Positions 5,577 through 31,309 of a stretch of 32,000 nucleotides of DNA are shown piece by piece. The position numbers were made by a program, and so were the translations under genes. Each line of letters begins with the position of its first letter. Within the stretch, counting starts at the first letter, position 1. The stretch spans positions 180,001-212,000 of the forward strand of contig NZ_CP064926.1 in assembly GCF_018336915.1 (NCBI RefSeq), given 5' to 3'. The notes beneath the pieces were generated by a model that was not told the DNA's origin, did not search any database, and saw only the letters and a list, made by a program, of their open reading frames with translations. The stretch is from Acaryochloris marina S15. Lineage in GTDB: Bacteria > Cyanobacteriota > Cyanobacteriia > Thermosynechococcales > Thermosynechococcaceae.

Positions 5577-5710
5577 CCTCTCACCTCCGCATTTATTAAG
5601 ATGAGCAATGCAGCCCAAGCTGCATTTTTAACCTATGCCATAAACTTGAAGAAGCTTTGACGACTGAGTTTGCTGCTTTAGCCGGATTATCGGTAAGTTT
5701 GAATTTACAT

Positions 5711-5746
5711 CCTCACAAGTTCCTCAATATTGATTCCTTTATTAAG
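5711..5746 (+). promoter_or_regulatory. Copy D of the recurrent (T)TTCCTCA(A)TAT element, about 110 nt upstream of hoxW
   Basis: CCTCACAAGTTCCTCAATATTGATTCCTTTATTAAG. The 11-mer TTCCTCAATAT is identical to the copy at 22854..22885 (read on the minus strand) and has the same orientation relative to the downstream gene. Confidence 0.35.
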
Positions 5747-5840
5747 TCAATAGTGTAGTGGTTGAAGACCAGACAGACCTCATAAGCTCTTCAACATTAA
5801 GCCCTACAGTTAAAGTGATGAGTATTAAGGAGGCATCTTC

Positions 5841-6371
5841 ATGGACTCTTCACCAGCCATTCTCCAACCCACAAAAACCCATTCAATCTTAGTTATTGGT
5901 TATGGGAATCAGCTTCTTTGTGATGATGCTCTTGGCCCTCGGATTGCAGATGAGGTAGCGATTTGGCGTCTTCCTCAGGTGAGATCGTTAACCGTCCATC
6001 AACTCACACCTGAACTGGCTGCAGAACTTGCGAACACAGAAACAGTAATCTTTATTGATGCATGCCGTTTGAACCCAGATCAGGCAGTCAGAGTCACTCA
6101 GATTACCCCTAGGGGTATGGAAACAACGGGCAGCACTGTCCCTTCCATGGGGCATACCTGTGATCCTCGTTCATTACTCGCGTTAACCCACTCAGTCTAT
6201 GGGCATCATCCCCAAGCCTGGTGGGTAGAGGTGACAGCCGTCGATTTTGCCGTGGGTGAGCATTTGTCCACGACTGCAGAGCAAGGCATTACTGAAGCAC
6301 TGGACGCCATTCAAAATCTCATCCAGTCGCAGCTGGATTCTGCTGCAAGGTCCATCAAACGTCATGCATGA
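5841..6371 (+). CDS. hoxW: Hydrogenase maturation endopeptidase (HycI/HybD/HoxW family)
   Basis: ILVIGYGNQLLCDDALGPRIADEV and FIDA motifs are typical of [NiFe]-hydrogenase C-terminal proteases. AAGGAGG lies 7 nt upstream of the ATG. The gene is adjacent to hypA/hypB and the hox genes. Confidence 0.9.
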   Translation: MDSSPAILQPTKTHSILVIGYGNQLLCDDALGPRIADEVAIWRLPQVRSLTVHQLTPELAAELANTETVIFIDACRLNPDQAVRVTQITPRGMETTGSTVPSMGHTCDPRSLLALTHSVYGHHPQAWWVEVTAVDFAVGEHLSTTAEQGITEALDAIQNLIQSQLDSAARSIKRHA

Positions 6372-6705
6372 AGTGAGTTTAATGCAAACCACCCTAGACA
6401 TTGCTTGCGACCATGCAGCCCAACAAGGTGCTCAGCATATCCACTGGATTAAGCTGCGGGTAGGTGAACTATCAGGGGTAATTCCCGAAGCCCTCACTCT
6501 CGCCTTTGAAATCGTCACCACTGGCACCATGGCTGCGAATGCTCGGCTTGAAGTAGAAACGGTACCCGTCATTTGCCACTGTTCAGCTTGTTATCAAGAT
6601 TTTCAGCCCACTGGCTGGGTTTATGTTTGTCCCACCTGTCATCAGTTCACCACTGATTTACGCCAAGGCAGAGAACTAGAGTTAACAGCAATGGAGGTGT
6701 CGTAG
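6364..6705 (+). CDS. hypA: Hydrogenase nickel-insertion protein HypA
   Basis: Canonical MHE(V/L)S N-terminus at 6364 (MHEVSLMQTTLDIA). The zinc site is CHCSAC ... CPTC. The start overlaps the hoxW stop (ATGCATGA), suggesting translational coupling. Confidence 0.92.
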   Translation: MHEVSLMQTTLDIACDHAAQQGAQHIHWIKLRVGELSGVIPEALTLAFEIVTTGTMAANARLEVETVPVICHCSACYQDFQPTGWVYVCPTCHQFTTDLRQGRELELTAMEVS

Positions 6706-6706
6706 G

Positions 6707-7528
6707 ATGTGTGAAGATTGCGGTTGTAGTGCTGGATCTGTCCAGATTCATCAAGGCCATGATCCTCAACCGAACAAAACAACAACAAGCTTAGAAGTTC
6801 CAACACCCAGCGTACGCCACCTTGACCTGCACGCTAAGATTCTGGAGCACAATGATCGCATTGCGGATCAGAATAGAGCCCTGTTTCACCAACAGGGCTG
6901 GTTAGTGGTGAATATTCTGTCTTCGCCGGGGTCGGGGAAAACAGCTTTGATTGAGCGACTTGCTCAAGATCAACGGAATAATTGGCAAATCGGGACCATT
7001 GTTGGCGATTTAGCGACGGATAATGATGCCCATCGATTAGGCCATGCTGGGGTATCAGCTGTCCAAATTACAACGGGGACAGCGTGCCACTTAGAAGCCA
7101 GTATGGTGAGCCACGCTTTATCCAAACTCCCATCCAAACCTTGGGATCTCCTTGTGATTGAAAATGTCGGCAACCTCGTTTGTCCCGCTGCGTTCGATTT
7201 AGGAGAACAAATCAGAGTCGTCGTCCTGTCTGTTACCGAGGGCGAAGACAAACCCCAAAAATATCCAGCAATGTTCAAGTCGGCTCAGGTCGTTTTGATC
7301 AATAAGACGGATATTGCAGAGGCTGTGGGATGGCAACGAGACCTTGCGATCGCAAATCTCCAACAAATCGCCCCCCAAGCGACCCTCTTTGAGGTATCGG
7401 CCCGAACAGGAGCGGGTATGCATGCCTGGTATGCCTATTTGGACCAGTGTCGCCAAGGCCTAAATGGACCATTGTCTCGCTCCCAAAACTCACAAGTTTT
7501 ACAGATTGGTAGACTATCCTCAAACTAG
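6707..7528 (+). CDS. hypB: Hydrogenase nickel-incorporation GTPase HypB
   Basis: N-terminal MCEDCGCS (CxxCGC Ni site), P-loop SSPGSGKT, ENVGNLVCP and NKTD GTPase motifs. The ATG lies 1 nt after the hypA stop. Confidence 0.93.
   Translation: MCEDCGCSAGSVQIHQGHDPQPNKTTTSLEVPTPSVRHLDLHAKILEHNDRIADQNRALFHQQGWLVVNILSSPGSGKTALIERLAQDQRNNWQIGTIVGDLATDNDAHRLGHAGVSAVQITTGTACHLEASMVSHALSKLPSKPWDLLVIENVGNLVCPAAFDLGEQIRVVVLSVTEGEDKPQKYPAMFKSAQVVLINKTDIAEAVGWQRDLAIANLQQIAPQATLFEVSARTGAGMHAWYAYLDQCRQGLNGPLSRSQNSQVLQIGRLSSN
7346..7353. repeat. HIP1 octamer
   Basis: Exact GCGATCGC. Confidence 0.95.
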
Positions 7529-12106: not shown

Positions 12107-13591
12107 TCAACCTTTGACCTGAAATTCCCCCGTTGAGGTTCTCCACACCTCGCTCAGGACTCGGCCACTGTTTGCCGCTTTGCATTGGATATGAATTGGC
12201 ATCTGGCCTGCCGCATGGGTTGAGCAACTTAAACAAGGATCAAAGGCCCGAATGCCTGCTTCGACTCGATTGAGCATTGACTCAGGAATATCCGGTCCAT
12301 GGAGGTAGTGACGAGCAATCTGGGCAACGGTGCGGTTCATCGCCAGATTGTTTTGCCCCGTGGCGATGATCAGATTAACGGATTGGAGTAACCCCGTTTC
12401 ATCTACTTGATAGTGATGAAACAATGTCCCTCTCGGTGCTTCACTCACCCCAATCCCTTCTAGTTGATTGACATCTGCCTGGGCTCGCAAGGGGGACTTG
12501 CAGAGTTCTGGATCTTCTAATTTCTGCTCAATGCGCTCAATACAGGCCAAAATCTCAATTAAGCGGGCGTAATGGTAGAAGAAAGAAGATGTAACGGTCC
12601 CATTGCCCCGCTGTCGAAATTCTTGTAATTCTTGATCGGCTAAGGGAGTGCCCATGCGATCACAGACATTCAGTCGGGCTAAAGGTCCCACCCGATACAT
12701 GCCACTCTCCAAACGGCACAATCCTGGAGACTGATTAGGATAGCCCAAGGGTCGATAGTAGGGTGACTTTAGATAAGAATCAGCCTGAACCGCTTCGCCA
12801 ATAAAGGAATGGAATTGGCACGGATCAAGATGATCTGCAATGATATTTCCGACACTATCCACAAAGCGTAAACAGCCATGGTAATGTTCCCAGGTTCCCT
12901 CTGTATTGATTAACCCCATAAATAAGCTGGGGAAATTACCAAAAATTCGAGCCTCACTAGCATGTCTATCCAACAGGTCTTTAAACCGATTTAGGGTTGA
13001 AAGGGCCGTTGACCGTACCTCTGACAACCCAGCTCGGATTTGTTTACGTCCCTCGCCGGTTAGAGCCGATCGTACACCTCCAGGGACAGCCCAAGCCGGG
13101 TGAATTTTCTGCCCACCCAAATGCTGAATCACTTCCTGTCCAAACTGGCGTAGCCGGATACCGCTGCGGGCAAGTTCCGGCTCTGCGGCCATCAGGCCAA
13201 ACACATTCCGTTGGGCCGGATCACTCTCCCACCCCAACAGTAGATCGGGACTACTCAGATGAAAAAAACTCAAGGCATGGGACTGAATAATCTGACCTAA
13301 GTTCATTAAGCGGCGCAATTTCTCTGCCGCTAGAGGAATATGAACTGCAAGAATTTGGTCTCCGGCTTTCGCCGACGCTAGCAGGTGACTCACAGGGCAA
13401 ATCCCACAGATGCGCGGGGTAATTCCCGGCATCTCCCAAAATGGTCGGCCTTCGCAAAACTTCTCAAATCCCCGAAACTCCGTCACATGAAATCGAGCAT
13501 CTGTGACTTCACCCGCGTCATCCAAGTAAATCGAGATTTTGGCATGGCCTTCAATCCGAGTGACCGGATCAATGATGATTCTCTGAGGCAT
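12107..13591 (-). CDS. hoxH: Bidirectional [NiFe]-hydrogenase large subunit HoxH
   Basis: N-terminal RIEGH and [10 protein letters not shown] (CxxC Ni-Fe ligands). C-terminal DPCLSCSTH is followed by a 35-aa extension, the expected HoxW substrate. Confidence 0.95.
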
Positions 13592-13629
13592 TATGAATTT
13601 TCTGTTTTTTTAGGTTACACATGAGTCAG

Positions 13630-14256
13630 CTAGCCACTACACCAGGCATCATACTCTCGATCTTTATAGGCTTCTGGGTACTCCTCACGAAACGCTTCAA
13701 AAGCAGTTTTTTCAAGCTTTTCGGCACGTTGATGAGCCGCTTCCGCTTGGACTGCATCAACGTCCTGCCAAGCTTGTTGACAGGCTTTAGAATCGGCTCC
13801 CTGTCGTTGACAGATAGCGTGAGCGTCAGCAATTAACTGTTGTGTTTTCTGAGCAAGCTCCACTTCTAAGGGGTTTTCCAAGAAGTCACTTTGATCCAGG
13901 ATGTCAGAGATTGAGAGAATGCCCAGCAGATTCCACTGGATAATGGGTGCGGCATGAATACCGCTGGTGGTCAATAATCGTGCGGCATATTCGACCCCGA
14001 GTTCCGGATTGAGCACCAAACAAGGTTTCGTCATAATTTCATAGACTCTCACCTGCCGTGGATCACGGCCAAAGGACGTTACTTTGGCAACGATATCGAA
14101 GGCTGTCACAATTCCGTAAGCATCTTGCTCATGGTTCCTATCAACAATGAGGGCATGAATCCCATGCCGTCGCATCAATCGGACGGCCTCAGCCACCTTC
14201 GCCGAATTCCGAATTTTGATGACTTCCGTAGTCATAATGTCTGCAACTTTCATCAT
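13630..14256 (-). CDS. CBS-domain pair fused to a CP12-like C-terminal domain (CBS-CP12, long form)
   Basis: Two CBS repeats (VADIMTTEV..HALIV; IMTKPCLV..AAPII). The tail AICQRQGADSKACQQAWQDVDAVQAEAAHQRAEK aligns almost residue-for-residue with the N-terminal Cys pair and AWD_VEEL core of CP12. The C-terminal CP12 Cys pair is absent (FREEYPEAYKDREYD). GGAGAA RBS upstream. Confidence 0.85.
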   Translation of the reverse strand: MMKVADIMTTEVIKIRNSAKVAEAVRLMRRHGIHALIVDRNHEQDAYGIVTAFDIVAKVTSFGRDPRQVRVYEIMTKPCLVLNPELGVEYAARLLTTSGIHAAPIIQWNLLGILSISDILDQSDFLENPLEVELAQKTQQLIADAHAICQRQGADSKACQQAWQDVDAVQAEAAHQRAEKLEKTAFEAFREEYPEAYKDREYDAWCSG

Positions 14257-14295
14257 TGTTGTTTCTCCAAGCGTTTATGCCAGTCCTATCCAAAC

Positions 14296-15723
14296 TCACC
14301 CCACTGGTGCCTCCTGAGCTTGCAAGCGGGGCTTAACCAACCGTGACTTTCCCCAATTCCAGAGGGCACCTAAGCCCAAGAGAACAATGACAATGCTCAT
14401 AATTCCGCCGATGAGGGGAATAGCGGTAATTAACATCAGAACCACTACCCCCATCAGGAATGGGATAAATCGGTTTGCTGTCTTATGCAGGTTGAATTGG
14501 CTGCTGAGCCAGCGTCCACCCAGATCGCTGATTAATACGGGAGCAATCAAACTCGCGAAGCTGCCAATACCGACCCATAGGGCCAGATTAGCCAAGGTTC
14601 CGACTCCCAGAACGGGCCAGGCTAGTCCTTGGAGGGTCAAGACAAGCACAATAAATGCAAGGATGGTCAGAACTGCGATCACAACACTCGCTACTCCCAC
14701 CAACACACTGGTCACAATGCCCCAACCCAACGTTCTCAAGGGTCGAGTCTGAATATTCTGAGTTAATCCTTCTGTCCACTTTGGAAATGCCCAAAGCAAG
14801 GCACATCCCACTAACCCAATCGTCAGCAAGCGTTGCAGTTGATCTAGCACGATATTCGTCGGCTTGGCTGGCGTCGGTTCCCATTCTGGAATCGGTTGAT
14901 GCGTGATTTTACCTGTCACTTGCGATCCATCATTTAGGGAGGCAGTAGTTGGTGATTTGTAGGTCAACCGACCTTTGACTTGGGCCGAATCTGTGAGGGT
15001 TAATCCTGCCGGCACATCAGGAATCTTAAGGCGAGGGCTAGGTCCGAATATAGGTTTCCAAGTCTGGTTGTCGCCGACGGTAACGGCCATATCTTGACCC
15101 ACTGTCCCCTCTAAGGTTAGTCCTCCCATACCCCCCACAACATCCTGATCAACCGTTCCTGCCAGTAGTGCCTGACCACTCGCAACTGTGAGAGTGCCAC
15201 CGATGGACGTTTGGGGTTGACTTTCCAGGCTCAGCCCTGCGGCGATCATGTCATCTTTCACCCGAGCCTGATTTTTGAGAAGCAGTGCCTCTCCTGCTAT
15301 CCGCACGTCGTCTTGAACCGTTCCGTTCACCACCACGGCTTGCCCTGCAGCGATTAAATCCCCTTCAACAGACCCATTGAGGGCAACCAAAGCGCCGGCC
15401 AGAATAGCATCACCTTTAACAGTGCCATCAATCGTTATTTCATCACCTGCTAAGTAAACATCCTTCTCAACGGTGCCCGATAGTTGAATGGTCTCTCCTG
15501 CTGCAAACAGATTATCTTTTAAGGTTCCGTCAACCGTTATACGGTCCCCAGTTGCATAATAGTTACCTTGAATGACCTCTGTAGCCTCCACGGTGATCTG
15601 ATCTTGCGTCACGAAATTGGGGGCTCCAACCGCAGAAACCGCTAATAGCAATGGGGCAATGACCAAGGCCATTAGAAACAACAGCACTTGTCTAAAATAT
15701 TGTCTCGATGGTTTAGTTTGCAT
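14296..15723 (-). CDS. Membrane protein with an N-terminal hydrophobic anchor or signal, about 9 bactofilin-like beta-helix repeats and a C-terminal polytopic domain
   Basis: Hydrophobic N-terminus (VLLFLMALVIAPLLLAVSAVGA). About 17-aa repeats of the form h-x-x-A-G-x-x-h-x-h-x-G-x-V-x-x-D (e.g. VYLAGDEITIDGTVKGD, AILAGALVALNGSVEGD, LIAAGQAVVVNGTVQDD). The last ~190 aa contain several long hydrophobic helices. Confidence 0.75.
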   Translation of the reverse strand: MQTKPSRQYFRQVLLFLMALVIAPLLLAVSAVGAPNFVTQDQITVEATEVIQGNYYATGDRITVDGTLKDNLFAAGETIQLSGTVEKDVYLAGDEITIDGTVKGDAILAGALVALNGSVEGDLIAAGQAVVVNGTVQDDVRIAGEALLLKNQARVKDDMIAAGLSLESQPQTSIGGTLTVASGQALLAGTVDQDVVGGMGGLTLEGTVGQDMAVTVGDNQTWKPIFGPSPRLKIPDVPAGLTLTDSAQVKGRLTYKSPTTASLNDGSQVTGKITHQPIPEWEPTPAKPTNIVLDQLQRLLTIGLVGCALLWAFPKWTEGLTQNIQTRPLRTLGWGIVTSVLVGVASVVIAVLTILAFIVLVLTLQGLAWPVLGVGTLANLALWVGIGSFASLIAPVLISDLGGRWLSSQFNLHKTANRFIPFLMGVVVLMLITAIPLIGGIMSIVIVLLGLGALWNWGKSRLVKPRLQAQEAPVG

Positions 15724-15769
15724 CTGAGGTACCTACACTGAAAGTGATAAAGTAGCCTGTTCTGAAGGG

Positions 15770-16315
15770 CTAAATAGCTCCGTTTAAGGCAGCTTGGTCT
15801 TCAAAAGCTTCAACCACATCCCAGGCCACAGAACATTCTTTTGAAATCTGGGTTTGCGGGTCACCACAAATAATCCGGGCATGTTTTAAGGCATTGTCGA
15901 TTTGCTGAGCAAGCCAATTGGCTTGATAGTTATGCTTCCCATCCGTTTTCATCACTAAGTCGGTCACGGATACAATGCCTAAAAGCTGCTGTTCATCAAT
16001 CACTGGTGCTCTCTGAATGCCTGATTCTGCAAGTAATTGAGCTAATTCTTCCACAGTGAGATCAGGATGGGCTGTAATACAAGGTTCGCGAACTAGCTTT
16101 TGAATGCCAATTTCATGGGGATTTTTGCCGACAGCCAAGACTTGGTAAACAATATCTCGCTCAGTGATGATACCGTAAGCAGTTTGTCCCTCAGGGTGTT
16201 CAACAATGAGGGAGCGGACTTTATGGTATTGCATCAGGGCAATGGCTTGTGCCACGGTTGCTGTATCCTGAATCGCAATCACCTCTTGGGTCATAATGTC
16301 TCTAACTTTAAGCAT
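15770..16315 (-). CDS. CBS-domain pair fused to a truncated CP12-like domain (CBS-CP12, short form)
   Basis: I prefer the ATG at 16315 (MLKVRDIMTQ) because AAGGAGAA lies upstream. Two CBS repeats are followed by ARIICGDPQTQISKECSVAWDVVEAFEDQAA, which is a CP12 N-terminal Cys pair plus an AWD_VE core. The protein ends shortly after that core. Confidence 0.8.
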   Translation of the reverse strand: MLKVRDIMTQEVIAIQDTATVAQAIALMQYHKVRSLIVEHPEGQTAYGIITERDIVYQVLAVGKNPHEIGIQKLVREPCITAHPDLTVEELAQLLAESGIQRAPVIDEQQLLGIVSVTDLVMKTDGKHNYQANWLAQQIDNALKHARIICGDPQTQISKECSVAWDVVEAFEDQAALNGAI

Positions 16316-16388
16316 CTTTGTTCTCCTTAATACGTCCACGATTGATAGGAACCGAGCAGAGGTCATTGACCATTGAATGAGATTGTGA

Positions 16389-16934
16389 TCACCCGAATTT
16401 AATTTGATCTCGGCCCTCGAGTTGAGGCTTCTTCCCCTGCAGTAGCGCTTCTAATACCAATTGGATTCGAGAAGGTGATGGCGGGCAACCCGGTAAAAAG
16501 AGATCAACGGGAACAACGGTATGCACGGGTTGAACCCGATCCAATAAAGGGGGAACAATCTCTTCCTCTGCAGGAATTTGGGGCACCAGATCTGCCATGT
16601 CGATGTAAGACCGCTCAAGAACCCTCTCCGCTGTACCCAAAACATTACGTAACGCTGTGACATTCCCAGTAACGGCACAGTCCCCAAAGGCAATCAGGTA
16701 TTGAGTGCAATCTCGGACTCGATGAATCATCTCCCAATGGTCTGTATTGGCTATTGCGCCTTCGACTAATGCCACATCTACTTCTTGTGGATACTGCTTG
16801 GCATCCATAAAGGGGCTGTAAACAAGATCTATCTGGTGGGCCAACTCAAATAGCCACTCGTCAAGGTCCAGAAAAGACATATGGCATCCTGAGCATCCTC
16901 CTAGCCAAACAGTCGCTAACTTCAGTTTTGCCAT
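16389..16934 (-). CDS. hoxY: Bidirectional [NiFe]-hydrogenase small subunit HoxY
   Basis: MAKLKLATVWLGGCSGCHMSFLD and GDCA..LPGCPP Fe-S ligand motifs. The ATG at 16934 is preceded by GGAGG. The longer track ORF (to 17012) adds a non-conserved leader. Confidence 0.93.
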   Translation of the reverse strand: MAKLKLATVWLGGCSGCHMSFLDLDEWLFELAHQIDLVYSPFMDAKQYPQEVDVALVEGAIANTDHWEMIHRVRDCTQYLIAFGDCAVTGNVTALRNVLGTAERVLERSYIDMADLVPQIPAEEEIVPPLLDRVQPVHTVVPVDLFLPGCPPSPSRIQLVLEALLQGKKPQLEGRDQIKFG

Positions 16935-17075
16935 TCTGCCTCCATACTTTAAAAATAGTTGTGCATGATGAGTGCTCACTTTTAAGTTCGACTGCATGTT
17001 CAAGAGATGCATTCAAACTCACGATTCCAACCTCAAAACTGATTTCCTTTCACTGTTTTGTTTGGTATTTCTCAC

Positions 17076-17795
17076 TCACTTTTGAATCCATTCCCGCCTC
17101 GTTCTAGCAGTAGCAATAAATTCAAGTTGGGTACGATCATGTTCCATCTCCCCAACAGTTGAACCACGACGAAAGATGGCTCCTGTTGGACAGGCATTGA
17201 CGCACTTTCCACAAGCGGTACAGCTCTCGGCTTCCCCCCAAGGCTGGTTTAAATCTGTAATCACTCGGGAAGTCCGACCTCGACCTGCCATATCCCAGGT
17301 ATGAGCCCCTTCAATCTCATCGCAAACTCGAATACAGCGAGTACATAAAACACAGCGATTATGATCAACGCCAAATTGAGGATGGGAAATATCAACGGAG
17401 CGATCTGGAAATTGATAGGTAAAACGCACATGATCAATCCCCATCTCAATGGCAAGATCTTGCAACTCGCAGTGGTGATTGGAAACGCACACTGAACAGA
17501 TATGATTCCCTTCCGCGAATAGCAGCTCCACGATCATGCGTCGATAGTGTTTAAGCCGTTCTGTTTGGGTTAGAACGATCATCCTCTCTGCCACTGGCGT
17601 GACGCAGGCGGCCAATAGCTTAGAATTTCCACTAACCTCTACTAGGCAAAGTCGGCAGGCTCCCCATAAGGAAACGCCCTGTAAGTTGCATAGCGTCGGA
17701 ATATGAATCCCTGAAGCTGTAGCGGCTTCAAGGATTGTTTCATCACCCCGTGCACTGATGAGTTGATCATCAATCTTGAGGGTCTTAACAGCCAT
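17076..17795 (-). CDS. hoxU: Hydrogenase diaphorase subunit HoxU (NuoG N-terminal-like Fe-S protein)
   Basis: N-terminal 2Fe-2S ferredoxin-like segment (CNLQGVSLWGACRLCLVEV), a His/Cys cluster (HICSVCVSNHHCELQ) and two 4Fe-4S motifs (CVLCTRCIRVC, CTACGKCVNACP). Confidence 0.93.
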   Translation of the reverse strand: MAVKTLKIDDQLISARGDETILEAATASGIHIPTLCNLQGVSLWGACRLCLVEVSGNSKLLAACVTPVAERMIVLTQTERLKHYRRMIVELLFAEGNHICSVCVSNHHCELQDLAIEMGIDHVRFTYQFPDRSVDISHPQFGVDHNRCVLCTRCIRVCDEIEGAHTWDMAGRGRTSRVITDLNQPWGEAESCTACGKCVNACPTGAIFRRGSTVGEMEHDRTQLEFIATARTRREWIQK

Positions 17796-17835
17796 AGCCC
17801 ATACCTGCTTTCTCCTTTTGCTGTGTACCCAGTCC

Positions 17836-18027
17836 TTACCAAGAATTCTCCTGGTTTAGATCTGGATCAGCTGGATCGCCTTCAAAGGGTTGGATTCCCA
17901 CCTCTGGATAGTCATCATGGGAAGGACTAAAGATACGGAGAATCGGTTGAGCAATATAGCTAAGGAAGCGTCGAACCGTTTTGCTTAAGGATCGTATGGA
18001 TAGAGATTTACCCTGGAGTGTTGCCAT
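17836..18027 (-). CDS. Small hypothetical ORF (63 aa) immediately upstream of hoxU
   Basis: ATG lies after a GAGGAC-like RBS and ends 40 nt before hoxU. It is the first ORF downstream of two copies of the TTTTCCTCA element. No family recognised, so it may not be translated. Confidence 0.3.
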   Translation of the reverse strand: MATLQGKSLSIRSLSKTVRRFLSYIAQPILRIFSPSHDDYPEVGIQPFEGDPADPDLNQENSW

Positions 18028-18050
18028 TATCGAATGTCCTCACAACTAAA

Positions 18051-18084
18051 CTATATAGAGAAAAATTTGAGGAAAAGATGTCAG
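18051..18084 (-). promoter_or_regulatory. Copy B of the recurrent TTTTCCTCA element
   Basis: The minus strand reads CTGACATCTTTTCCTCAAATTTTTCTCTATATAG. It lies 24-57 nt upstream of the small ORF start (18027) and ends in the palindromic, -10-like CTATATAG. Confidence 0.4.
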
Positions 18085-18122
18085 TTTTCATAGGATGTGA
18101 CATCTGACCTCTTAATTTGAGG

Positions 18123-18152
18123 CTATATAGACAATATGAGGAAAACGTGAGC
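18123..18152 (-). promoter_or_regulatory. Copy C of the recurrent TTTTCCTCA element
   Basis: The minus strand reads GCTCACGTTTTCCTCATATTGTCTATATAG. It is a direct repeat of copy B with the cores 69 bp apart, and it shares GCTCA..TTTTCCTCA..TCTATA with the copy at 22854..22885. Confidence 0.4.
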
Positions 18153-18326
18153 GGTATGCTGTCCAAGTTCGATAAAACAGAAACATTGCAAACCATTCCC
18201 CACAGCAGTTCGCAAGTATTGCTATATATTTCTCAATGCCCTATTTGAATCAACTGATTGGAGGGTTGCTTGACTTTAGCCTAATCAGGTTACTGTGCTG
18301 CTAGAAAACCGTGCACCGTAGGTTAC

Positions 18327-19334
18327 CTAAAGATCGCTTTCAGGAATTTCTTCTTTAAAATCAATGACCAATTGCATGGTTTCTAGGACTAAAGATCTGA
18401 GGTCTTGAGTGAGAGGGAGTTTAGCCTCAGGACCAAACCAACGGTCAAAAGTTTTGACATAGGGTTCTTTGCCCTTTAAGTAACCCTCCATGAAACGTAC
18501 TAGAGCGTAATTCACTTGATCAACAAATTTGGAATTATTCTCAGGCATCATGCAGGCAATTCCCTCTCTTGAAAAATACCCAACAACATTAAAGTCCTCA
18601 GGATTCTGGCTGTTTTGTAGCCAGCCTTCTAGTAAAATACCGTCGGCTGCAAAGGCATCAACGGTGCCCTGCTGCAATGCTTTATATCCCTGAGCATGAT
18701 CTTGGATGGCGATGATCTGGGCTCGGGATTGAGTACGGCGAATCGCAATCTCATTTGTTGTGCCCGCAACAGCGGCGATTTTCTTATTGGCCAACGCCTC
18801 GGGTTCCCATGCCTCACTCCCCTTCTTCATCAACAAGCGGGTTCCTGTCAGACTATAGCTAACGGAAAAGTCTATTTCCTTATCCCTTTCCCAGGTATAG
18901 CTGCTAGCATCACAGACAATATCTACTTCACCTGTGACTAATTTAGGAATTCGATCGCTAGGGGTAAGAGCAATCAACTTTAGCTCAATCTCTTTTCCAA
19001 GCGTTTTTGATAATTGGGCCTGTACCTGTTTCAACATTTCGATTGAGTAACCCTGAAATTGCCCATGTTCATCCATGAAGGCAAAGGGGAGAGCATTTTT
19101 ATTAGTTCCAGCTGTTACAGTGCCAGTACGAGCTACTTTTTCGAGGACCGTTTCTGCAGAAACAAGCTGTGGGTTAGCTATGGTGAAGAGACTACAAAGG
19201 GTGGTCAGTAAAGTAAGCCTAACTCCTCGCCCCCAAACCTTTACAAGGGGATGAGGGAAGCGGTTTGGATCAACAGGATATTGCATGCTCGTATTCTGAA
19301 TAATTCGGACTAAGTTTATAGAAAAAAAGAACAT
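18327..19334 (-). CDS. Periplasmic polar-amino-acid-type solute-binding protein (SBP family 3), orphan
   Basis: Signal-like segment LTLLTTLCSLFTIANPQLVSA. Family-3 SBP patterns are present (GTVTAGTNKNALPFAF, GYSIEM, DIVCDASSYTWERDKEIDFS, VDAFAADGILL). The start is uncertain (19334 or the ATG at 19286). No permease or ATPase genes are adjacent. Confidence 0.8.
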   Translation of the reverse strand: MFFFSINLVRIIQNTSMQYPVDPNRFPHPLVKVWGRGVRLTLLTTLCSLFTIANPQLVSAETVLEKVARTGTVTAGTNKNALPFAFMDEHGQFQGYSIEMLKQVQAQLSKTLGKEIELKLIALTPSDRIPKLVTGEVDIVCDASSYTWERDKEIDFSVSYSLTGTRLLMKKGSEAWEPEALANKKIAAVAGTTNEIAIRRTQSRAQIIAIQDHAQGYKALQQGTVDAFAADGILLEGWLQNSQNPEDFNVVGYFSREGIACMMPENNSKFVDQVNYALVRFMEGYLKGKEPYVKTFDRWFGPEAKLPLTQDLRSLVLETMQLVIDFKEEIPESDL

Positions 19335-19415: not shown

Positions 19416-21080
19416 CTATGAGGAGTGATGATCGTCAGATGCCTTATTATGCATAAGCTCTAAGTACTCATCTTTGAAAAAATGTAGGGTACTTAGTATG
19501 GGATTTGGGGCAGATTTACCAAGGCCGCACAGGCTAGTATCCTTGACCATTTCGCAAAGTTGGTTCAGAGACTCTAAATCATCTGTTCTTGCTTTCCCTT
19601 CGCAGATTTTTGTGAGCAACTGGTGAAGCTGAACCGTTCCTGCCCGACAGGGAACGCATTTGCCACAGGACTCTTCCATACAAAACTCCATGAAGAAACG
19701 AGCGACGTCCACCATATTGGTGGCCTGATCCATGACAATCATCCCACCAGACCCCATAATGGACCCCAAACGGGTTAGAGACTCATAATCTACAGGCGTA
19801 TCAAAGGCATGGACGGGAATACATCCCCCTGAGGGGCCACCGGTTTGCACTGCTTTAGCCGATCCATCAAGGACCCCCCCGCCCATCTGTTCAACGATTT
19901 GACGCAGGGAGGTACCCATGGGTACTTCAATCAATCCGGTGTTTTGGATCTTGCCCGCTAAGGAAAAGACTTTGGTACCTTTGCTCTTGTCTGTGCCAAT
20001 CCCAGCAAACCATTCAGCACCGTTGCGAATGATAGGAGCGATATTCGCAAAAGTTTCCACATTATTAATCAATGTTGGACAACCCCAAAGTCCGGATTCA
20101 GCAGGGTAAGGTGGTCGGGGGTGAGGTAAGCCGCGCTTCCCTTCGATGGAGGCCATTAGGGCTGTTTCCTCACCACAGACAAAGGCACCCGCACCAATGC
20201 GGATATCGATCCGAAAGTCAAAGGGGGACTCAAAAATTTGACTGCCGAGTAAACCTTGCTTGCGAGCTTGACGAAGGGCCGTTTCGAGGTGATTGATGGC
20301 GAGGGGATACTCACCTCGAATATAGATGTAGCCTTGGTTGGCGCCGACAGCATAGGCTGCAATTGCCATCCCTTCTAACACCCGATGTGGATCGCTTTCT
20401 AAGACACTGCGATCCATAAAAGCACCAGGGTCTCCTTCATCACCATTGCAAATCACATACTTTTGTCCTGGGGGCATTTTGGCAACTGTTGACCATTTCA
20501 AGCCTGTGGGGTAACCGCCGCCGCCTCGCCCTCGTAGACCACTTTGAGTAATCTGATCAATCACTTCACTGGGGGTCATATCATAAAGTGCCTGGTAGAG
20601 GGCTATATAGCCTTTATTGGCCATATATTCCTTAATTTCCTTAGGGTCGATGTGGCCACTGTTTTCAAGGACGATGGGGTGTTGAAGGGTGAAAAAAGGG
20701 TGATGTCGGGGCTGATAAGAGGAGGGTTGAGGCAAAGAGAGGGGAGTATTGTTTGGTAACTCTTTGGGAAGATTGGATTGGAGGGTTTCTTGACAGGCGT
20801 GGACCAGTTCAGGGACGCTCTCGGCGGTCACTTGATCGTAGAGAATGCCTGAAGGGTCTAGGCGGACTAGGGGACCTCGGCTACATAGTCCCATACAACC
20901 TACCCCCCGGACTTGAATGGGAGGGGTGAGGGCTTGTGTTGAGATCGCAACTTCGATTTGTTTTTTTACTTCTAATGCATTAGCAGATAAACAGCCCCCC
21001 ACCGTACAACAGCGGATGCAGGGAGCACTGAGGATCTCTTGTTCTCGCTTAGCTAGAGTTTGTAGCTCTTGTAAATCCAT
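19416..21080 (-). CDS. hoxF: Hydrogenase diaphorase subunit HoxF (NuoF-like NAD(P)H/FMN/4Fe-4S)
   Basis: N-terminal thioredoxin-like 2Fe-2S segment. NuoF motifs are [27 protein letters not shown] and the 4Fe-4S motif [10 protein letters not shown]. The ATG directly abuts the hoxE stop (TAAATG). Confidence 0.95.
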
Positions 21081-21590
21081 TTATGTTGCTACCTTACATT
21101 GAGGATGGCCCATCATCTGTGTGACTTGCTGACCCAATTTTTCTGAGGTTTGATAGCCGACAACTTGACCATCCAACACCACAGCAGGAGCGCTCCCACA
21201 GGCCCCTAAGCAACGAGCAGTGCTGAGTGATAAGCATCCATCCCTGGTGGTTTCCCCAGTTTGAATTTGAGCGATCTGTTCCACGGTTGATAGGAGTGAT
21301 GCAGCCCCTTTTACAAAACATGCCGTTCCCATACAAACCACACAGGTATGACGTCCAGAGGGGGTTAGCGAGAAAAAGTGATAGAACGTGGCCACACCAT
21401 AGACTTGACTGGGAGGTAACTTCAAACTGTGGGCAATATGCAATAGGACATCTTGTTCTAAATATCCGAACAATTCCTGAGCTTTATGGAGAACTTCAAT
21501 CAGAGAATTGGGCTGATATTGATGCCGTTTCATCGTTGCCTCTAACACCCTAAAACGATGATCTTTATTGGGATGAGGTTTGCCATCCAC
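21081..21590 (-). CDS. hoxE: Hydrogenase diaphorase subunit HoxE (NuoE-like 2Fe-2S)
   Basis: HPNKDHRFRVLEATMKRHQYQPNSLIEVLHKAQELFGYL and VCMGTACFVKG...CLGACGSAP are typical HoxE/NuoE motifs. GTG start with AAGGGAG 12 nt upstream. Confidence 0.9.
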   Translation of the reverse strand: MDGKPHPNKDHRFRVLEATMKRHQYQPNSLIEVLHKAQELFGYLEQDVLLHIAHSLKLPPSQVYGVATFYHFFSLTPSGRHTCVVCMGTACFVKGAASLLSTVEQIAQIQTGETTRDGCLSLSTARCLGACGSAPAVVLDGQVVGYQTSEKLGQQVTQMMGHPQCKVAT

Positions 21591-21661
21591 AATAGTTTGA
21601 CTCCCTTCACTTAACTGTCATTGGATAGCTCTGCATTTTTCTTAGAGCATGTCTGTTGTCT

Positions 21662-22735
21662 TCAGGCCGGCTGCTGAGGACGCACAACCATTACAGAACA
21701 GGACGCATGGTTCGCAACATATTTCCCCACACTGCCAAGAAGCATTTCGCTGAGTCCAGAACGACCCCGATTACCCACTAGAATTAAGTCTGATGATCGG
21801 TTCTTGGCAAACTCACAAATGATTTCGCCGGGAGATCCGGGTTGTTGAATAAATTCAGTCGGAATACCTGCTTCCCTTGCGATCGCAGTATAGGAACGCA
21901 ATTGGGGTAGGCAATCACTATCATAGGTATTCCACTGTCGTTGCTGGCTGTAGAGGATGTCATCGCGCAAACTAGGATAGTCATCCAGCCGTTGCTGAGT
22001 AAAAGCGGTTGGATGGGTGATAGAAATGGGAACTTTGGCAATATCCGGTGGCAAGACATGCAGCAACATCAGCCTAGCCGTGGACATTGATTTGGCAACG
22101 TTTATCGCCATATTAAAGATTTGTGGGTTTATGGCACTCCCATCCATGGCCACTAATATACTGCGGTAAGACAACTTTTCGCGCCATGCTTCGGAAGACT
22201 GTTGATTCGCCGCTAGGGTATTTATGGATTGTTTGGGGATGAACTCGGGGACATCTTGGTGGTGGACAATCAGGACTGAGCAGGGAGCATTATGTGTGAC
22301 GTAATTGCTAACACTGCCCAATAGAAGTTTGCTGAGAAAGTTTCGACTGCGTCGTCCAATGATGATCGTATCGGCTTGCCATTGTCGGGCTATTTCACAA
22401 ATCTCCCTGCCTGGATCTCCTAAAGATTGTTGATAGACAACGGTAAGACCCTTTTCTTTTGCCTGATTGGCTCGAGATCTGAGTAACTCAAGACTGCTGG
22501 CTTTGAAGACATCTAAGTCATTGAGATAAGAGTTTACGACCCCAGTATGTGACAGGTCAAACTCCTCTAATACGCCTGGCATCAGAGGATACGGAGGATA
22601 TCCCTCCTCAGTCGAGGAAATGACATGCAATAATAAGAGCTTTGCATGGGTTGCCTTAGCTAGAACCACAGACTGCATAAAGGTTTGCTGACTAAAGGCG
22701 GAGTGATCTAAAGCCACCAGAATTTTTTTTGACAT
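21662..22735 (-). CDS. Tandem universal stress protein (two UspA domains)
   Basis: Two repeats of the USP pattern (KILVALDHS...GSVSNYVTHNAPCSVLIV and SILVAMDGS...GSVGKYVANHASCSVMVV). The ATG at 22735 is preceded by GGGAGG. The gene ends 71 nt upstream of hoxE on the same strand. Confidence 0.9.
   Translation of the reverse strand: MSKKILVALDHSAFSQQTFMQSVVLAKATHAKLLLLHVISSTEEGYPPYPLMPGVLEEFDLSHTGVVNSYLNDLDVFKASSLELLRSRANQAKEKGLTVVYQQSLGDPGREICEIARQWQADTIIIGRRSRNFLSKLLLGSVSNYVTHNAPCSVLIVHHQDVPEFIPKQSINTLAANQQSSEAWREKLSYRSILVAMDGSAINPQIFNMAINVAKSMSTARLMLLHVLPPDIAKVPISITHPTAFTQQRLDDYPSLRDDILYSQQRQWNTYDSDCLPQLRSYTAIAREAGIPTEFIQQPGSPGEIICEFAKNRSSDLILVGNRGRSGLSEMLLGSVGKYVANHASCSVMVVRPQQPA
21879..21886. 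repeat. HIP1 octamer
   Basis: Exact GCGATCGC. Confidence 0.95.
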
Positions 22736-22853
22736 GACAACCTCCCAAAGCATCCAGCTCCAGTTATATATCTACTTATAGTTCCAATTTCCGTCGACCT
22801 TCTAGAAGGGAAGACCGACCCAAACATCTATCCTGGACGTTTCCTGCTTAGGG

Positions 22854-22885
22854 TTATAGAACAAGATATTGAGGAAAATATGAGC
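22854..22885 (-). promoter_or_regulatory. Copy A of the recurrent TTTTCCTCA element, in the divergent USP/USP intergenic region
   Basis: The minus strand reads GCTCATATTTTCCTCAATATCTTGTTCTATAA, about 120-150 nt upstream of the tandem-USP start (22735). The 9-mer TGAGGAAAA occurs only three times in the window, and all three are in these elements. Confidence 0.4.
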
Positions 22886-23105
22886 TTTAGCTGCAACCCA
22901 GACATTCATGTCTAGAGAAAATTTCGAGCCCTTGTCATCAGGGATTACTCAAACCATCCAGTATGCTTCACAATCTTGGGACGAATGATAGCAACCAGAC
23001 AAGTGCTAAGTTGAGTGACTGACAAGAAAATAAAGCTCTACCATGGAGGTATAAGGGGTTGATCGGAACTGTCCAGACGGTTGTTATTTGTGTGGAGGAA
23101 TCCTG

Positions 23106-27181: not shown

Positions 27182-27331
27182 TGTAATCCTCCTAGAGGGC
27201 TGGGGTGACGGATTCGATCCTATTCTTCAGAGTAACGGCAAATCGGGGCAGCATCCGTTCGGAGAACAACACTTGTTGAAGTTTCTTGGCCAAACCACTT
27301 CATCAAGTATATTTATCCAGCGCTCCGATTT

Positions 27332-27381
27332 TGAGGAGCTTGTGAAGATTGAGGTGTCAACCATTCTTCACAAGCTCCTCA
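27332..27381. repeat. Perfect 17-bp inverted repeat with a 16-nt spacer in a divergent intergenic region
   Basis: TGAGGAGCTTGTGAAGA (27332..27348) and TCTTCACAAGCTCCTCA (27365..27381) are exact reverse complements. The repeat lies 60 nt upstream of the DUF4278 ATG and 151 nt upstream of the response-regulator start. Confidence 0.9.
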
Positions 27382-27440
27382 GGCCCTTGCAATAGATTTT
27401 AAGTGAGAGGTATCGGGAACTTCCTAAAGGAGAGGAGACA

Positions 27441-27887
27441 ATGAAACTAACCTATAGAGGCATTAATTACGACTATAGTCCTCCAGTGGTTCGCTATGGC
27501 AACCGCGCTGGAGTAGGCAAATATCGTGGCGCAACTTACCCACGCCAAAATCTAAAGGAGACGCCTGTACCTCAAGTCAGTGCTGATCTCACCTACCGTG
27601 GTGTGGCGTATCATACCGGTGAATCACCGACTGATACTTCTCAATCACAAAGGGAAGACCAACCTGAAACAGTTGGAGCTGATTGGGTGTCTGTTGCTGA
27701 AGAAGCCCGGTGGTTAATGATGGATCATCATCGGATTATTAAGCACCGCCAGCAAAGTATGCTCGGTCGGACGACATCAGAGATTCATCTTAAGGTAGAT
27801 CCCTCAAAATATTGGAATCATATTCAAGGGAAAGTCCATCCCAGCTTTCGAATGACTTATGAACGCAGCCATGCTGCTATGAGTTAG
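27441..27887 (+). CDS. DUF4278-family protein
   Basis: The N-terminus MKLTYRGINYDY and a second YRGVAYH repeat are the hallmark of cyanobacterial DUF4278 proteins. A GGAGAGGAG RBS lies upstream. Confidence 0.75.
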   Translation: MKLTYRGINYDYSPPVVRYGNRAGVGKYRGATYPRQNLKETPVPQVSADLTYRGVAYHTGESPTDTSQSQREDQPETVGADWVSVAEEARWLMMDHHRIIKHRQQSMLGRTTSEIHLKVDPSKYWNHIQGKVHPSFRMTYERSHAAMS

Positions 27888-28791: not shown

Positions 28792-28796
28792 TGGGG
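28783..28796. repeat. 14-bp perfect palindrome CCCCACTAGTGGGG containing the stop codons of both convergent genes
   Basis: The central CTAG gives TAG on both strands (plus 28789..28791; minus complement of 28788..28790). Both proteins therefore end in Pro-His-stop, and the two CDSs overlap by 4 nt. Confidence 0.9.
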
Positions 28797-29666: not shown

Positions 29667-29764
29667 TATGTTGATGGCTAGCTAGGAAGGATGAAAGTTG
29701 GGTTTTCATGGAGATCATCATCAAAGGATTAGGCTCAGGGAATGTGTCAGGCTAGATTCAGCAA

Positions 29765-31306: not shown

Positions 31307-31309
31307 GGT

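Follow-up and report, generated by a model that had tools for sequence, protein, structure and literature searches.

A stretch of 32,000 nucleotides from Acaryochloris marina S15 (the window), which derives from the 277-kb Acaryochloris plasmid pMB02, carries an oriented, putative promoter element of pho-box-like geometry, composed of two head-to-tail 11-bp direct repeats with the consensus TTCCTCAcAAg / TTCCTCAAATT, followed by a -10 hexamer TAnnnT; the -10, the start site and activation are predicted from this geometry. The element is probably read by a regulator of the OmpR/PhoB type, most likely the hybrid response regulator encoded at 27181-24803, and the probability of this reading is put at about 0.6. 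It is not specific to hox and hyp genes and, judged from the sequence, marks the promoters of a far larger regulon. Literature searches with the motif string found no published description.

The earlier note on this DNA was built on the 9-mer TGAGGAAAA, which reads TTTTCCTCA on the gene strand. Its statement that exactly three copies occur was reproduced by a count in the window (18068-18076, 18137-18145 and 22870-22878, all on the + strand), and the flanks that it quoted, together with a partial fourth copy, GTTCCTCAATATTG, at 5719-5732, were read as given. The figure of about 0.25 copies expected by chance was too low, since dinucleotide shuffles gave 0.72; three or more copies were reached in 2 of 100 shuffles, so that the count of the 9-mer by itself is no more than borderline. 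Variants of the 9-mer with one mismatch were not enriched in the window (14 against 12.1 expected). It was found that TTTTCCTCA is part of one unit of a 22-bp tandem-repeat element, and the signal is decisive when the element is taken in its extended form, through the pattern CTCA-N7-CTCA, the enrichment of matches to a position weight matrix (PWM), the intergenic bias and the fixed offset of TAnnnT. The pattern CTCA-N7-CTCA selects three of the four copies, here called A, C and D (Table 1), and all four copies face their downstream gene, as had been claimed.

The two 11-bp repeats were revealed by the positions conserved outside the search pattern in a profile of 126 cyanobacterial sites, in which TTTC stands at positions -3 to 0 and AATTTTT at positions 16-22, T19 being present in 116 sites. 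The TAnnnT hexamer lies exactly 11 nt past the second CTCA in 27 of 33 intergenic plasmid sites, and T27, A28 and T32 are each present in 27 of the 33; these sites were picked by a 15-mer PWM alone, and the hexamer is outside that matrix. From the measured spacing of the repeats and the -10, the hexamer would occupy -12 to -7 and the repeats about -41 to -20, where they would stand in for a -35 box. At the -35 position the sequence is ACAAGT, which bears no resemblance to TTGACA, and the sole TTGACA-like part (yTCACA) lies 20 bp from the -10, with a spacer that is conserved throughout. The spacer of promoters of the sigma-70 family is 16-19 bp, and a TTGACA-like hexamer at that distance from the -10 is absent from the element. 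Two direct repeats with a period of 10-11 bp, as in OmpR/PhoB tandem sites, are seen both in the 126-site profile and in copies A, C and D, and the fixed place some 10 bp before the -10, where a -35 would otherwise stand, is found in 27 of the 33 sites. The idea of a promoter module thus stood, but it is built on paired 11-bp direct repeats and not, as first described, on a 9-mer with a loosely spaced TATA part. The -10 of copy A, assigned by the family-wide spacing, is TAGCCT (18125-18120) and not TATATA, which removes the caveat of variable spacing, and the TATATA of copy B is absent from A. marina MBIC11017.

Table 1. Sites of the tandem-repeat element and associated genes in the window (PWM, score of the full site)
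Feature	Position	Strand	Remarks
Copy A, full site	18120..18153	-	32-mer PWM 24.3; upstream of 63-aa ORF and hoxUY...H
Copy A, repeat 1	about 18153-18143	-	
Copy A, repeat 2	18142-18132	-	contains TTTTCCTCA at 18145-18137
Copy A, -10 TAGCCT	18125-18120	-	assigned from the fixed offset of 27/33 sites
Copy A, predicted transcription start	about 18113	-	
Copy B, half-site	18051..18084	-	scores <10 on both PWMs
Copy C, full site	22853..22886	-	PWM 27.1; upstream of tandem-USP gene and hoxEF
Copy D, full site	5709..5743	+	PWM 31.9; upstream of hoxW-hypA-hypB
Second hoxW site	5779..5810	+	PWM 22.5; 67 bp downstream of copy D
Weak divergent site	5630..5661	-	PWM 14.2; faces 205-aa ORF at 5618-5001
Site within 3' end of hypB	7489..7520	+	PWM 20.3
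Site upstream of hybrid response-regulator gene	27315..27346	-	PWM 18.5; 134 nt upstream, same strand
Divergent partner site	27367..27398	+	PWM 27.7; faces DUF4278 gene 27441-27887
63-aa ORF	17836..18027	-	first gene behind copies A and B
hoxU, hoxY, CBS, bactofilin/DUF8173, CBS-CP12, hoxH	12107..17795	-	NCBIfam and Pfam
Tandem-USP gene, hoxE, hoxF	19416..22753	-	downstream of copy C
hoxW, hypA, hypB	5841..7528	+	downstream of copy D and second hoxW site
Hybrid response regulator, 792 aa	24803..27181	-	candidate reader

Conservation in orthologous hox/hyp promoters was seen for copies A, C and D, which are kept in A. marina MBIC11017. Copy A lies within a 57-nt block that is identical in that strain, the flanks being about 75% identical. 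Copy C (CTCATATTTTCCTCA, 11 nt, then TATAAC at 22858-22853) precedes the same USP gene there, and the order motif-USP-hoxE occurs also in Phormidesmis priestleyi (L089). Copy D, aTCCTCACAAGTTCCTCA, is a clear TCCTCA-N5-TCCTCA direct repeat with a weak -10 at the canonical offset (TTTATT). Beyond the four copies of the earlier note, sites were found at 5779-5810, 7489-7520, 27315-27346 and 27367-27398. The first of these (CTCATAAGCTCTTCA, 11 nt, then TACAGT) lies 31 nt before the hoxW ATG at 5841, and MBIC11017 has the identical motif with TATCGT as the -10; the second (CTCACAAGTTTTACA, 11 nt, then TATCCT) faces an ORF at 7580-8071 (host-attachment/baeRF-like), DUF1614 and an adenosine kinase gene. 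The site upstream of the regulator gene, TTCACAAGCTCCTCA, has a poor -10 (CTGGAT) and orthologues in MBIC11017 and A. thomasi, the latter having a good -10 (TATTTT) and lying 162 nt before the ATG, and its divergent partner reads TTCACAAGCTCCTCA, 11 nt, then TAGATT. The site at 5630..5661 (GTCAAAGCTTCTTCA, 11 nt, then TAGGTT) is uncertain because of its PWM score of only 14.2. The genes from hoxU to hoxH would be co-transcribed from copy A, and those from the tandem-USP gene to hoxF from copy C. The 63-aa ORF belongs to a conserved small-protein family (..RIFSP..DDYP..GxQPFEGD..), homologues of which stand directly behind the motif at other loci (L123, L129, L104, L094, L066, L062, L118 and L082).

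Copy B had been counted as an equal member. It scores below 10 on the full model and is a degenerate half-site in the leader of the predicted copy-A transcript, about +30 to +60 from the predicted start. Its repeat 2 is perfect (TTTTCCTCAAATTTTT, core 18076-18068), the upstream half, CTGACA at 18084-18079, is shifted out of register by 1 bp, and TATATA (18057-18052) follows at 10 nt, not 11; the core is kept in MBIC11017 and the TATATA is not (CTGCAAACAG there). The same copy could act as an RNA element, UCCUCA pairing with the UGAGGA Shine-Dalgarno of the 63-aa ORF, 28 nt downstream, and so gating translation. Such a role is doubtful: TCCTCA (18073-18068) and TGAGGA (18042-18037) are exact complements within the predicted leader, and both strands of the pairing, and not the intervening loop, are kept in MBIC11017 (two sequences), but the predicted folds do not contain this pairing and are no stabler than shuffles (z = -0.11 and -0.47). 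A coding role, for small + strand ORFs that follow TGAGGAAAA (read as a Shine-Dalgarno-like sequence) or for a 31-aa leader ORF after copy A, was rejected, as every difference from MBIC11017 is non-synonymous or lies outside any frame.

Sites scoring at least 15 number 24 on pMB02, about one per 11 kb, and 21 on pREB4, against 3.4 expected and a null maximum of 7. On the source plasmid 33 of the 37 sites scoring at least 13 are intergenic and gene-facing, in a plasmid of which 21% is intergenic (about 1e-18 by our own binomial estimate), and the intergenic sites stand mostly 60-350 nt before an ORF of the same strand. The genes behind them include hoxEF, hoxUYH, hoxW-hypAB, nifJ, N-ATPase, USPs, hsp20, groES and ftsH. 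The shared, oriented promoter module proposed before the hox structural, hoxW-hypAB and USP-hoxEF units is thus borne out by the PWM sites and the fixed offset, and a dispersed repeat unrelated to gene context, which would have spoken against it, is not what the plasmid contains.

A pattern scan over 185,579 species genomes gave, among the matches listed, at least 120 blocks, 99 of them cyanobacterial and spanning many orders, while a viral control scan with the pattern gave only 37 single matches. The genes downstream in the matches listed were nifJ (6), Hsp20 (6), BLH_phosphatase (6) and USP (5), then FtsH, ABC/HlyD and others; nifJ stands behind the motif in distant genera as well. Among the same matches, the conservation before hox and hyp genes extends to unrelated cyanobacteria, in which the motif precedes USP-hoxEFUYHW, hoxW and hypF-linked genes; hox/hyp genes are found behind it in Phormidesmis, Amazonocrinis, Cyanosarcina, Chlorogloeopsis, Chroococcidiopsis and a MAG, and hoxW in particular at L056, L142 (Amazonocrinis) and L170 (Cyanosarcina). 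The co-regulation suggested earlier for hydrogenase, maturation and USP genes holds for the presence of the motif at their promoters, but not for a restriction to hox/hyp, as nifJ, hsp20, ftsH, groES and N-ATPase carry it too. What these genes encode (hydrogenase, PFOR, N-ATPase, PEP synthase, PFK, USPs and chaperones) points to energy, redox or low-oxygen stress as the signal. One PRC-barrel gene carries the motif.

In the candidate reader a receiver (REC) with D51 is followed by an OmpR/PhoB winged helix at about residues 125-222, an HPt domain with H293, a C-terminal REC with D538 and a GGDEF domain that is degenerate (RGGNQF); Pfam gave Response_reg, Trans_reg_C, Hpt, Response_reg and GGDEF for these, and its closest solved relatives are MtrA, RegX3, RpaA and PhoP. 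Full-length orthologues (35-58% identity, >600 aa) were found in 9 of the 99 motif-selected cyanobacterial 8-kb blocks among the matches listed, where at most 0.7 would be expected by chance even with five paralogues per genome (our estimate; Poisson P ~5e-8). Conversely, 11 loci picked solely for the regulator (245 kb) contained 13 sites against 0.6 under a Markov null, with 7 of the 11 loci positive; this enrichment is read as only about 6-fold, the value under a plausible background site density for cyanobacteria, since that density is a guess for those genomes. No site was found within 10 kb in 4 of the 11 loci, and two of these four, which have a different neighbourhood, may be paralogues. 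Because its peptide patterns were unspecific, a metagenome search for orthologues yielded mainly generic OmpR regulators, and the metagenome loci, as a negative control, contained 1 site in 458 kb, within the best orthologue. Three Acaryochloris species, Aetokthonos, Scytonema and Heteroscytonema carry a same-strand site ahead of the regulator gene. The linkage could also mean that the regulator gene is a mere member of the regulon. Among the candidates put forward earlier (LexA, a cyAbrB-type protein and this REC-wHTH protein), genomic linkage, which extends over many genera, favours the last, which is probably the reader and is the best candidate, and a LexA-type site finds no support.

In the mechanism proposed, a phosphorylated dimer of the OmpR/PhoB-type regulator would bind the repeats head-to-tail and recruit RNA polymerase via sigma region 4, like PhoB at pho boxes. 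Pho boxes of E. coli are bound head-to-tail by an OmpR/PhoB winged-helix dimer, and the element resembles them in its two direct repeats of 11-bp period, which end about 10-11 bp upstream of the -10, and in having no -35 box. The unit differs (CTGTCAT against TTCCTCA), as do the targets, which are those of the phosphate regulon there and hydrogenase, fermentation and stress genes here, and the candidate reader is a 792-aa hybrid with HPt, second receiver and GGDEF domains. That regulator would most likely be the RcaC-like protein encoded at 27181-24803, which shares with RcaC (Fremyella/Nostoc), an OmpR-class regulator binding target promoters (PMC13079394, PMC5737509), the unusual order REC, OmpR-class DNA-binding domain, HPt, REC. 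A phosphorelay of the RcaE-RcaF-RcaC type, with a PAS/GAF hybrid kinase and a single-domain receiver, is suggested by the relatives A. thomasi, Microcoleus, Brasilonema, Aetokthonos, two Leptolyngbya, Scytolyngbya and Microseira, in which the genes of the regulator, a large PAS/GAF sensor kinase and a 126-aa REC protein are adjacent; in the window the regulator gene adjoins neither a kinase nor a single-REC gene. The differences from the Rca system are that the targets here are not phycobiliprotein genes, that the family occurs also in non-acclimating taxa, e.g. Acaryochloris, that most of its members add a GGDEF domain (degenerate in the window protein), and that the neighbouring kinase has PAS/GAF domains and is not known to be a photoreceptor. 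The regulator appears to be autoregulated.

A different regulator of the OmpR family (a plasmid RpaB paralogue, RpaA or an Hrr1-like protein) might read the element, the hybrid regulator being merely a target, and this is regarded as unlikely. The tandem 11-bp geometry would suit any OmpR/PhoB protein, both Acaryochloris plasmids encode an RpaB paralogue above the RpaB equivalog cut-off, simple REC-wHTH genes occur in 3 motif-selected blocks, and RpaA has been reported to regulate hoxUYHW-hypAB (PMC13421787). HLR1 and the RpaA site are likewise tandem-repeat sites of cyanobacterial OmpR-family proteins, and yTCACAA, which is the first half-site of the element, is similar to the TTACAW half of HLR1. 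However, HLR1 is KTTACAWW-N2-KTTACAWW, with a 10-bp period and a variable position (PMC13421787), against TTCCTCA-N4-TTCCTCA with a period of 11 bp at -41 to -20 here, where the second half of the consensus yTCACAAnTTCCTCA has no TTACA, and RpaB at HLR1 was rejected as reader on sequence and period. RpaA, considered for hox control in S. elongatus, was rejected on its site, TAAA-N7-TTAA at -58 to -36, upstream of the -35 (PMC12916501), as the half-sites here are CTCA/TTCCTCA at -41 to -20. The H box, bound by Hrr1, the OmpR-type hydration regulator of Nostoc flagelliforme, consists of paired 11-nt direct repeats, AGGAATTTACM, and has the AGGAA/TTCCT core, the 11-nt period and a link to stress genes in common with the element (PMC13079394). 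Its unit is set against TGAGGAA plus 4 nt (TTCCTCAnnnn) here, so that the bases beside the core differ, and Hrr1 homologues are mostly from Nostoc (PMC13079394), whereas the motif is found in many orders. Simple OmpR genes are, moreover, linked to the motif three times less often than the hybrid regulator. As to regulators outside this group, OrrA, the salt and dehydration master regulator with PRC-barrel avaK genes in its regulon, came into consideration through the PRC-barrel gene that carries the motif; it is a LuxR-family protein (PMC13131328) and hence not the winged-helix candidate, but may be a co-regulator, and CdgS/CdgK have a different architecture, REC-GGDEF (PMC9927289).

Recognition by a repressor at the -35 region, in a LexA- or AbrB-like role as in Synechocystis hox, is improbable. 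The site overlaps the -35 position, the Synechocystis hox promoters are under LexA and cyAbrB proteins, whose target operons, hox and nifJ, are the same (PMC13421787), and binding at copy B or the second hoxW site, both of them downstream of a first promoter, would repress; but no -35-like hexamer stands at the proper spacing, so that the promoters look activator-dependent, and a repressor would not need single-base phasing with the -10. LexA and cyAbrB1/2 recognise palindromic or AT-rich DNA unphased to the -10, against the phased direct repeat here, and the earlier judgement that this is neither a LexA nor an NtcA box agrees with the absence of the LexA palindrome and of GTA-N8-TAC (centred at -41.5) from copies A-D. 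The strictly fixed distance to the -10 would suit an alternative sigma factor, e.g. a plasmid group-2-like factor, and a 299-aa cyanobacterial RpoD-family gene ends the gene string behind the site at pMB02 269000, which fits sigma autoregulation. The conserved DNA is, however, a 22-bp tandem repeat whose TTCACA-like part, 20 bp from the -10, falls outside the 16-19 bp spacer range, group-2 sigmas recognise ordinary -35/-10 boxes, and only 1 of the 99 cyanobacterial blocks among the matches listed has a sigma gene near the motif, the hybrid regulator being present in 9, all of which makes a sigma factor quite improbable. The view that the motif recurs by chance, or is a dispersed mobile repeat without regulatory function, could draw on the borderline 9-mer count, the unenriched one-mismatch variants and the richness of Acaryochloris plasmids in IS elements; it is refuted by the plasmid enrichment, the intergenic and orientation bias, the fixed -10 offset, conservation above that of the flanks and recurrence across cyanobacteria before the same gene families. 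Only 22-32 bp are shared, no inverted termini of the MITE kind or other terminal repeats were seen in the aligned flanks, and there is no linkage to transposases.

With the OmpR/PhoB-type regulator as the preferred reader, it is tempting to go further and to see in an RcaC-like phosphorelay the conserved master activator of a pan-cyanobacterial regulon, acting via TTCCTCA-N4-TTCCTCA promoters on hydrogenase and its maturation, PFOR, N-ATPase, USPs and chaperones; this wider proposal is tentative, and the odds are somewhat against it. What is known of the transcriptional control of the bidirectional hydrogenase comes mainly from Synechocystis (LexA, cyAbrB1/2 and SigE) and S. elongatus (RpaA). 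If the proposal is true, the RcaC-like relay would supply, outside the LexA/AbrB model of Synechocystis, the common switch that has been missing for hydrogen and fermentative metabolism. The element gives a sharply defined, searchable cis-signature uniting hoxEF, hoxUYH, hoxW-hypAB, nifJ, USPs, small heat-shock proteins and FtsH in a single promoter class over many orders of cyanobacteria, and a widespread but unnamed regulator family is nominated together with its kinase. The signal for hydrogen and fermentative metabolism, the role of the conserved small ORFs and USPs, and the concentration of the regulon on a plasmid in Acaryochloris now become testable, and for H2 engineering the element could serve as a regulated promoter of compact size, with its putative reader as a candidate for a master switch.

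The three copies of the 9-mer TGAGGAAAA that the earlier note had located in the window were all found where it placed them, and the flanks quoted there, together with a fourth, partial copy, proved correct on re-reading. The chance expectation was 0.72 copies (shuffles), 2 of 100 shuffles reached three, and one-mismatch variants of TGAGGAAAA showed no enrichment in the window; the 9-mer count alone is therefore only suggestive. Alignment with Acaryochloris marina MBIC11017 showed that copies A, C and D are kept in the orthologous promoters, copy A lying within a 57-nt block of perfect identity whose flanks are about 75% identical.

Location of the motif copies, genes and related loci (window coordinates unless another replicon or locus is named)
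Feature	Position or locus	Strand	Remarks
Copy D	5709-5743	+
hoxW, hypA, hypB	from 5841	+
hoxY-hoxH interval	13630-16366	-	three non-hydrogenase genes
Bactofilin/DUF8173 gene	14296-15723		475 aa
63-aa ORF	18027-17836	-	then hoxU, hoxY, CBS gene, bactofilin/DUF8173 gene, CBS-CP12 gene, hoxH
Copy B	18051-18084	-
Inverted repeat, 8 bp	18076-18105	-	AGATGTCA (18105-18098) / TGACATCT (18083-18076)
Copy A	18120-18153	-
-10 of copy A	18125-18120	-	TAGCCT
Tandem-USP gene	22753-21662	-	then hoxE, hoxF
Copy C	22853-22886	-
-10 of copy C			TATAAC
GrrP-like substrate-binding protein gene		-
Hybrid regulator gene	27181-24803	-	792 aa; REC-Trans_reg_C-HPt-REC-GGDEF
N-type F1Fo ATPase operon, 3' part	28788-31909	-	continues into pMB02 223566-231721
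MBIC11017 nitroreductase and IS1 insertions	L004 (pREB4) 12942-13814 and 17583-18580
Regulator-kinase-receiver-motif-phosphatase synteny	L255, L260, L261, L264		Microcoleus, two Leptolyngbya, Microseira
Loci with ~80-aa Cys-rich family	L061, L070, L080, L085, L090, L112, L120, L129

Copies A, C and D have CTCA-N7-CTCA in common, which over the whole 277-kb plasmid pMB02 of Acaryochloris sp. 'Moss Beach' extends to yTCACAAnTTyCTCA. With a PWM built from these plasmid sites, 24 sites scoring at least 15 were found on pMB02 and 21 on pREB4, the MBIC11017 plasmid, against 3.4 expected from Markov sequences. Although intergenic DNA makes up 21%, it holds 33 of the 37 sites that score 13 or more, and nearly all lie 60-350 nt before an ORF on the same strand. 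A TAnnnT hexamer, absent from the PWM model, occupies positions 27-32 in 27/33 sites; this fixed offset removes the earlier caveat of variable spacing between the core and the TATA-like part. Bases outside the search pattern are also conserved in 126 cyanobacterial sites (TTTC at positions -3 to 0, G or C at position 8, AATTTTT at 16-22), and thus the element consists of two 11-bp direct repeats, TTCCTCAcAAg / TTCCTCAAATT, whose repeat unit is the core first noticed. If the -10 is set at -12 to -7, the repeats would span about -41 to -20, the geometry of the pho box, which is established for PhoB. It is a real, conserved promoter motif of a mechanistic kind already known. The analysis demonstrates its anatomy, enrichment, conservation and gene context, and from these the transcription starts and activation are inferred.

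The exact pattern YTCACAANTTYCTCA-N11-TANNNT, for which about 277 chance matches are expected in 596 Gb, was matched by at least 120 blocks of the species-genome collection. Among the matches listed 99 are cyanobacterial (Nostocales, Chamaesiphon, Pleurocapsales, Leptolyngbyaceae, Chroococcidiopsis, Thermosynechococcaceae and others), several of them containing a divergent pair, or else two or three sites; the same pattern gave 37 single matches in the viral collection, which is the chance level.

Plasmid copies of the motif in Acaryochloris stand in front of hoxEF, hoxU, hoxW, nifJ, the N-ATPase operon, ppsA and a pfk-hypD string, as well as USPs, hsp20, a PRC-barrel/groES unit, ftsH, thioredoxin, psbU paralogues, RNA-binding proteins and an ABC/HlyD exporter. 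Elsewhere among the cyanobacteria the genes immediately behind the motif, among the matches listed, encode NifJ (6), Hsp20 (6), BLH-phosphatase-like proteins (6), USP (5), and also FtsH, pentapeptide proteins, ABC/HlyD, DUF2949, protoglobin and homologues of the 63-aa ORF; commonest, at 8/92 of the sites listed, is a ~80-aa Cys-rich family (MSTCPCCSDVLLRH..WFCRSCW..). The motif is followed by USP and hoxEFUYHW in Phormidesmis priestleyi, by hoxW in a MAG, Amazonocrinis and Cyanosarcina, by nifJ with USP-hoxE farther on in Chlorogloeopsis, and lies upstream of hypF in two Chroococcidiopsis. The observation in the earlier note was confirmed and its interpretation partly supported. The proposal that hox, hyp and USP genes are co-regulated holds, but the regulon is much larger, covering stress and fermentation. 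The 63-aa ORF, unannotated and without a Pfam or NCBIfam match, is a member of a small-protein family conserved in cyanobacteria (..RIFSP..DDYP..GxQPFEGD..), which recurs immediately after the motif in Nostoc, Anabaena, Calothrix, Microseira and Pleurocapsales.

In copy B the second repeat is perfect and the first half is displaced by 1 bp, and the copy scores below 10 with the PWM; in MBIC11017 only its TTTTCCTCAA core is retained and TATATA is replaced. Its place would be at about +30 to +60, inside the leader predicted for the copy-A transcript. The arrangement at hoxW is similar, with two tandem sites 67 bp apart, but unlike copy B the second hoxW site is good and has its own -10. On paper copy B could act as an anti-SD by pairing with the UGAGGA of the 63-aa ORF, but folding gave this no support. 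Between copies A and B this leader also holds the AGATGTCA/TGACATCT inverted repeat, partly kept in MBIC11017, whose fold is no more stable than those of shuffles.

Of the known sites, neither HLR1 (RpaB; KTTACAWW-N2-KTTACAWW, PMC13421787) nor the RpaA site (TAAA-N7-TTAA at -58 to -36, PMC12916501) matches the motif. The Hrr1 H box (2 x AGGAATTTACM, PMC13079394) has nothing in common with it beyond the AGGAA core and the 11-nt period, and OrrA belongs to the LuxR proteins (PMC13131328). In the open-access literature neither the motif nor the hybrid regulator family was found described, an earlier account elsewhere being possible, and the motif is apparently new.

One specific candidate for reading the motif, the hybrid regulator, has its gene within the window itself; which protein binds, and which signal it answers, is inferred. 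When the plasmid regulators were compared by tblastn with 120 motif-selected 8-kb blocks, its full-length orthologues were present in 9 cyanobacterial blocks (35-58% identity over >600 aa), about 0.7 being expected by estimate even at five paralogues per genome, simple OmpR proteins in 3, a sigma factor in 1 and Crp in 0 of 120. The motif is followed by a small Cys-rich ORF and the hybrid regulator in Scytonema and Heteroscytonema, by USP and the regulator in Aetokthonos, and three Acaryochloris species have a site 134-162 nt ahead of the ATG of the regulator. Conversely, eleven regulator-selected loci (245 kb) hold 13 sites with scores of 15 or more, where the Markov null gives 0.6, and 7/11 are positive. 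Four show the order hybrid regulator, PAS/GAF hybrid kinase, 126-aa receiver, motif and a BLH_phosphatase/PTP-NADK-like gene (131-157 aa), among the commonest motif targets. The family is widespread and carries no annotation beyond 'response regulator' or 'diguanylate cyclase'. The N-terminal half forms a standard OmpR/PhoB module (nearest solved relatives MtrA, RegX3, RpaA and PhoP), and orthologues differ at the C-terminus, which is absent, GGDEF, or PAS plus histidine kinase. Here the GGDEF domain (residues about 620-790) is degenerate, with RGGNQF for GGDEF/GGEEF, and therefore probably inactive as a diguanylate cyclase. Domain order and neighbours resemble the RcaE-RcaF-RcaC phosphorelay (PMC13079394, PMC5737509).

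The window is 100% identical to pMB02 over 7.4 kb and 87.7% identical to pREB4. The regulator and bactofilin/DUF8173 genes, intact in the window and in SRR12447961 (792 and 475 aa), are each broken in two in the Moss Beach plasmid as deposited (708 + 75 and 202 + 277 aa); the window therefore derives from another, nearly identical assembly or strain, or that reference contains frameshift errors. The hoxY-hoxH interval encodes a CBS-pair protein, the bactofilin/DUF8173 protein and a CBS-CP12 fusion, and in a MAG (L056) motif sites also fall between hoxY and hoxH. In MBIC11017 a nitroreductase gene, accompanied by a motif copy of its own (pREB4 137915), is inserted between the divergent USP genes, and an IS1 element between hoxF and the substrate-binding-protein gene. 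The alternative N-type ATPase operon contains AtpR/AtpZ-like genes, and a cation:proton antiporter is embedded in it; the operon's promoter (pMB02 223483, outside the window) carries one of the best motif copies, kept in pREB4 and A. thomasi. Genes of chromosomal type are present on pMB02 in additional copies, namely an RpaB paralogue, a group-2-like sigma factor, three psbU, two groESL, recA, ftsH, grpE, hsp20 and several USPs. With about one site per 11 kb and this gene content, pMB02 looks as if it were a dedicated stress/fermentation replicon.
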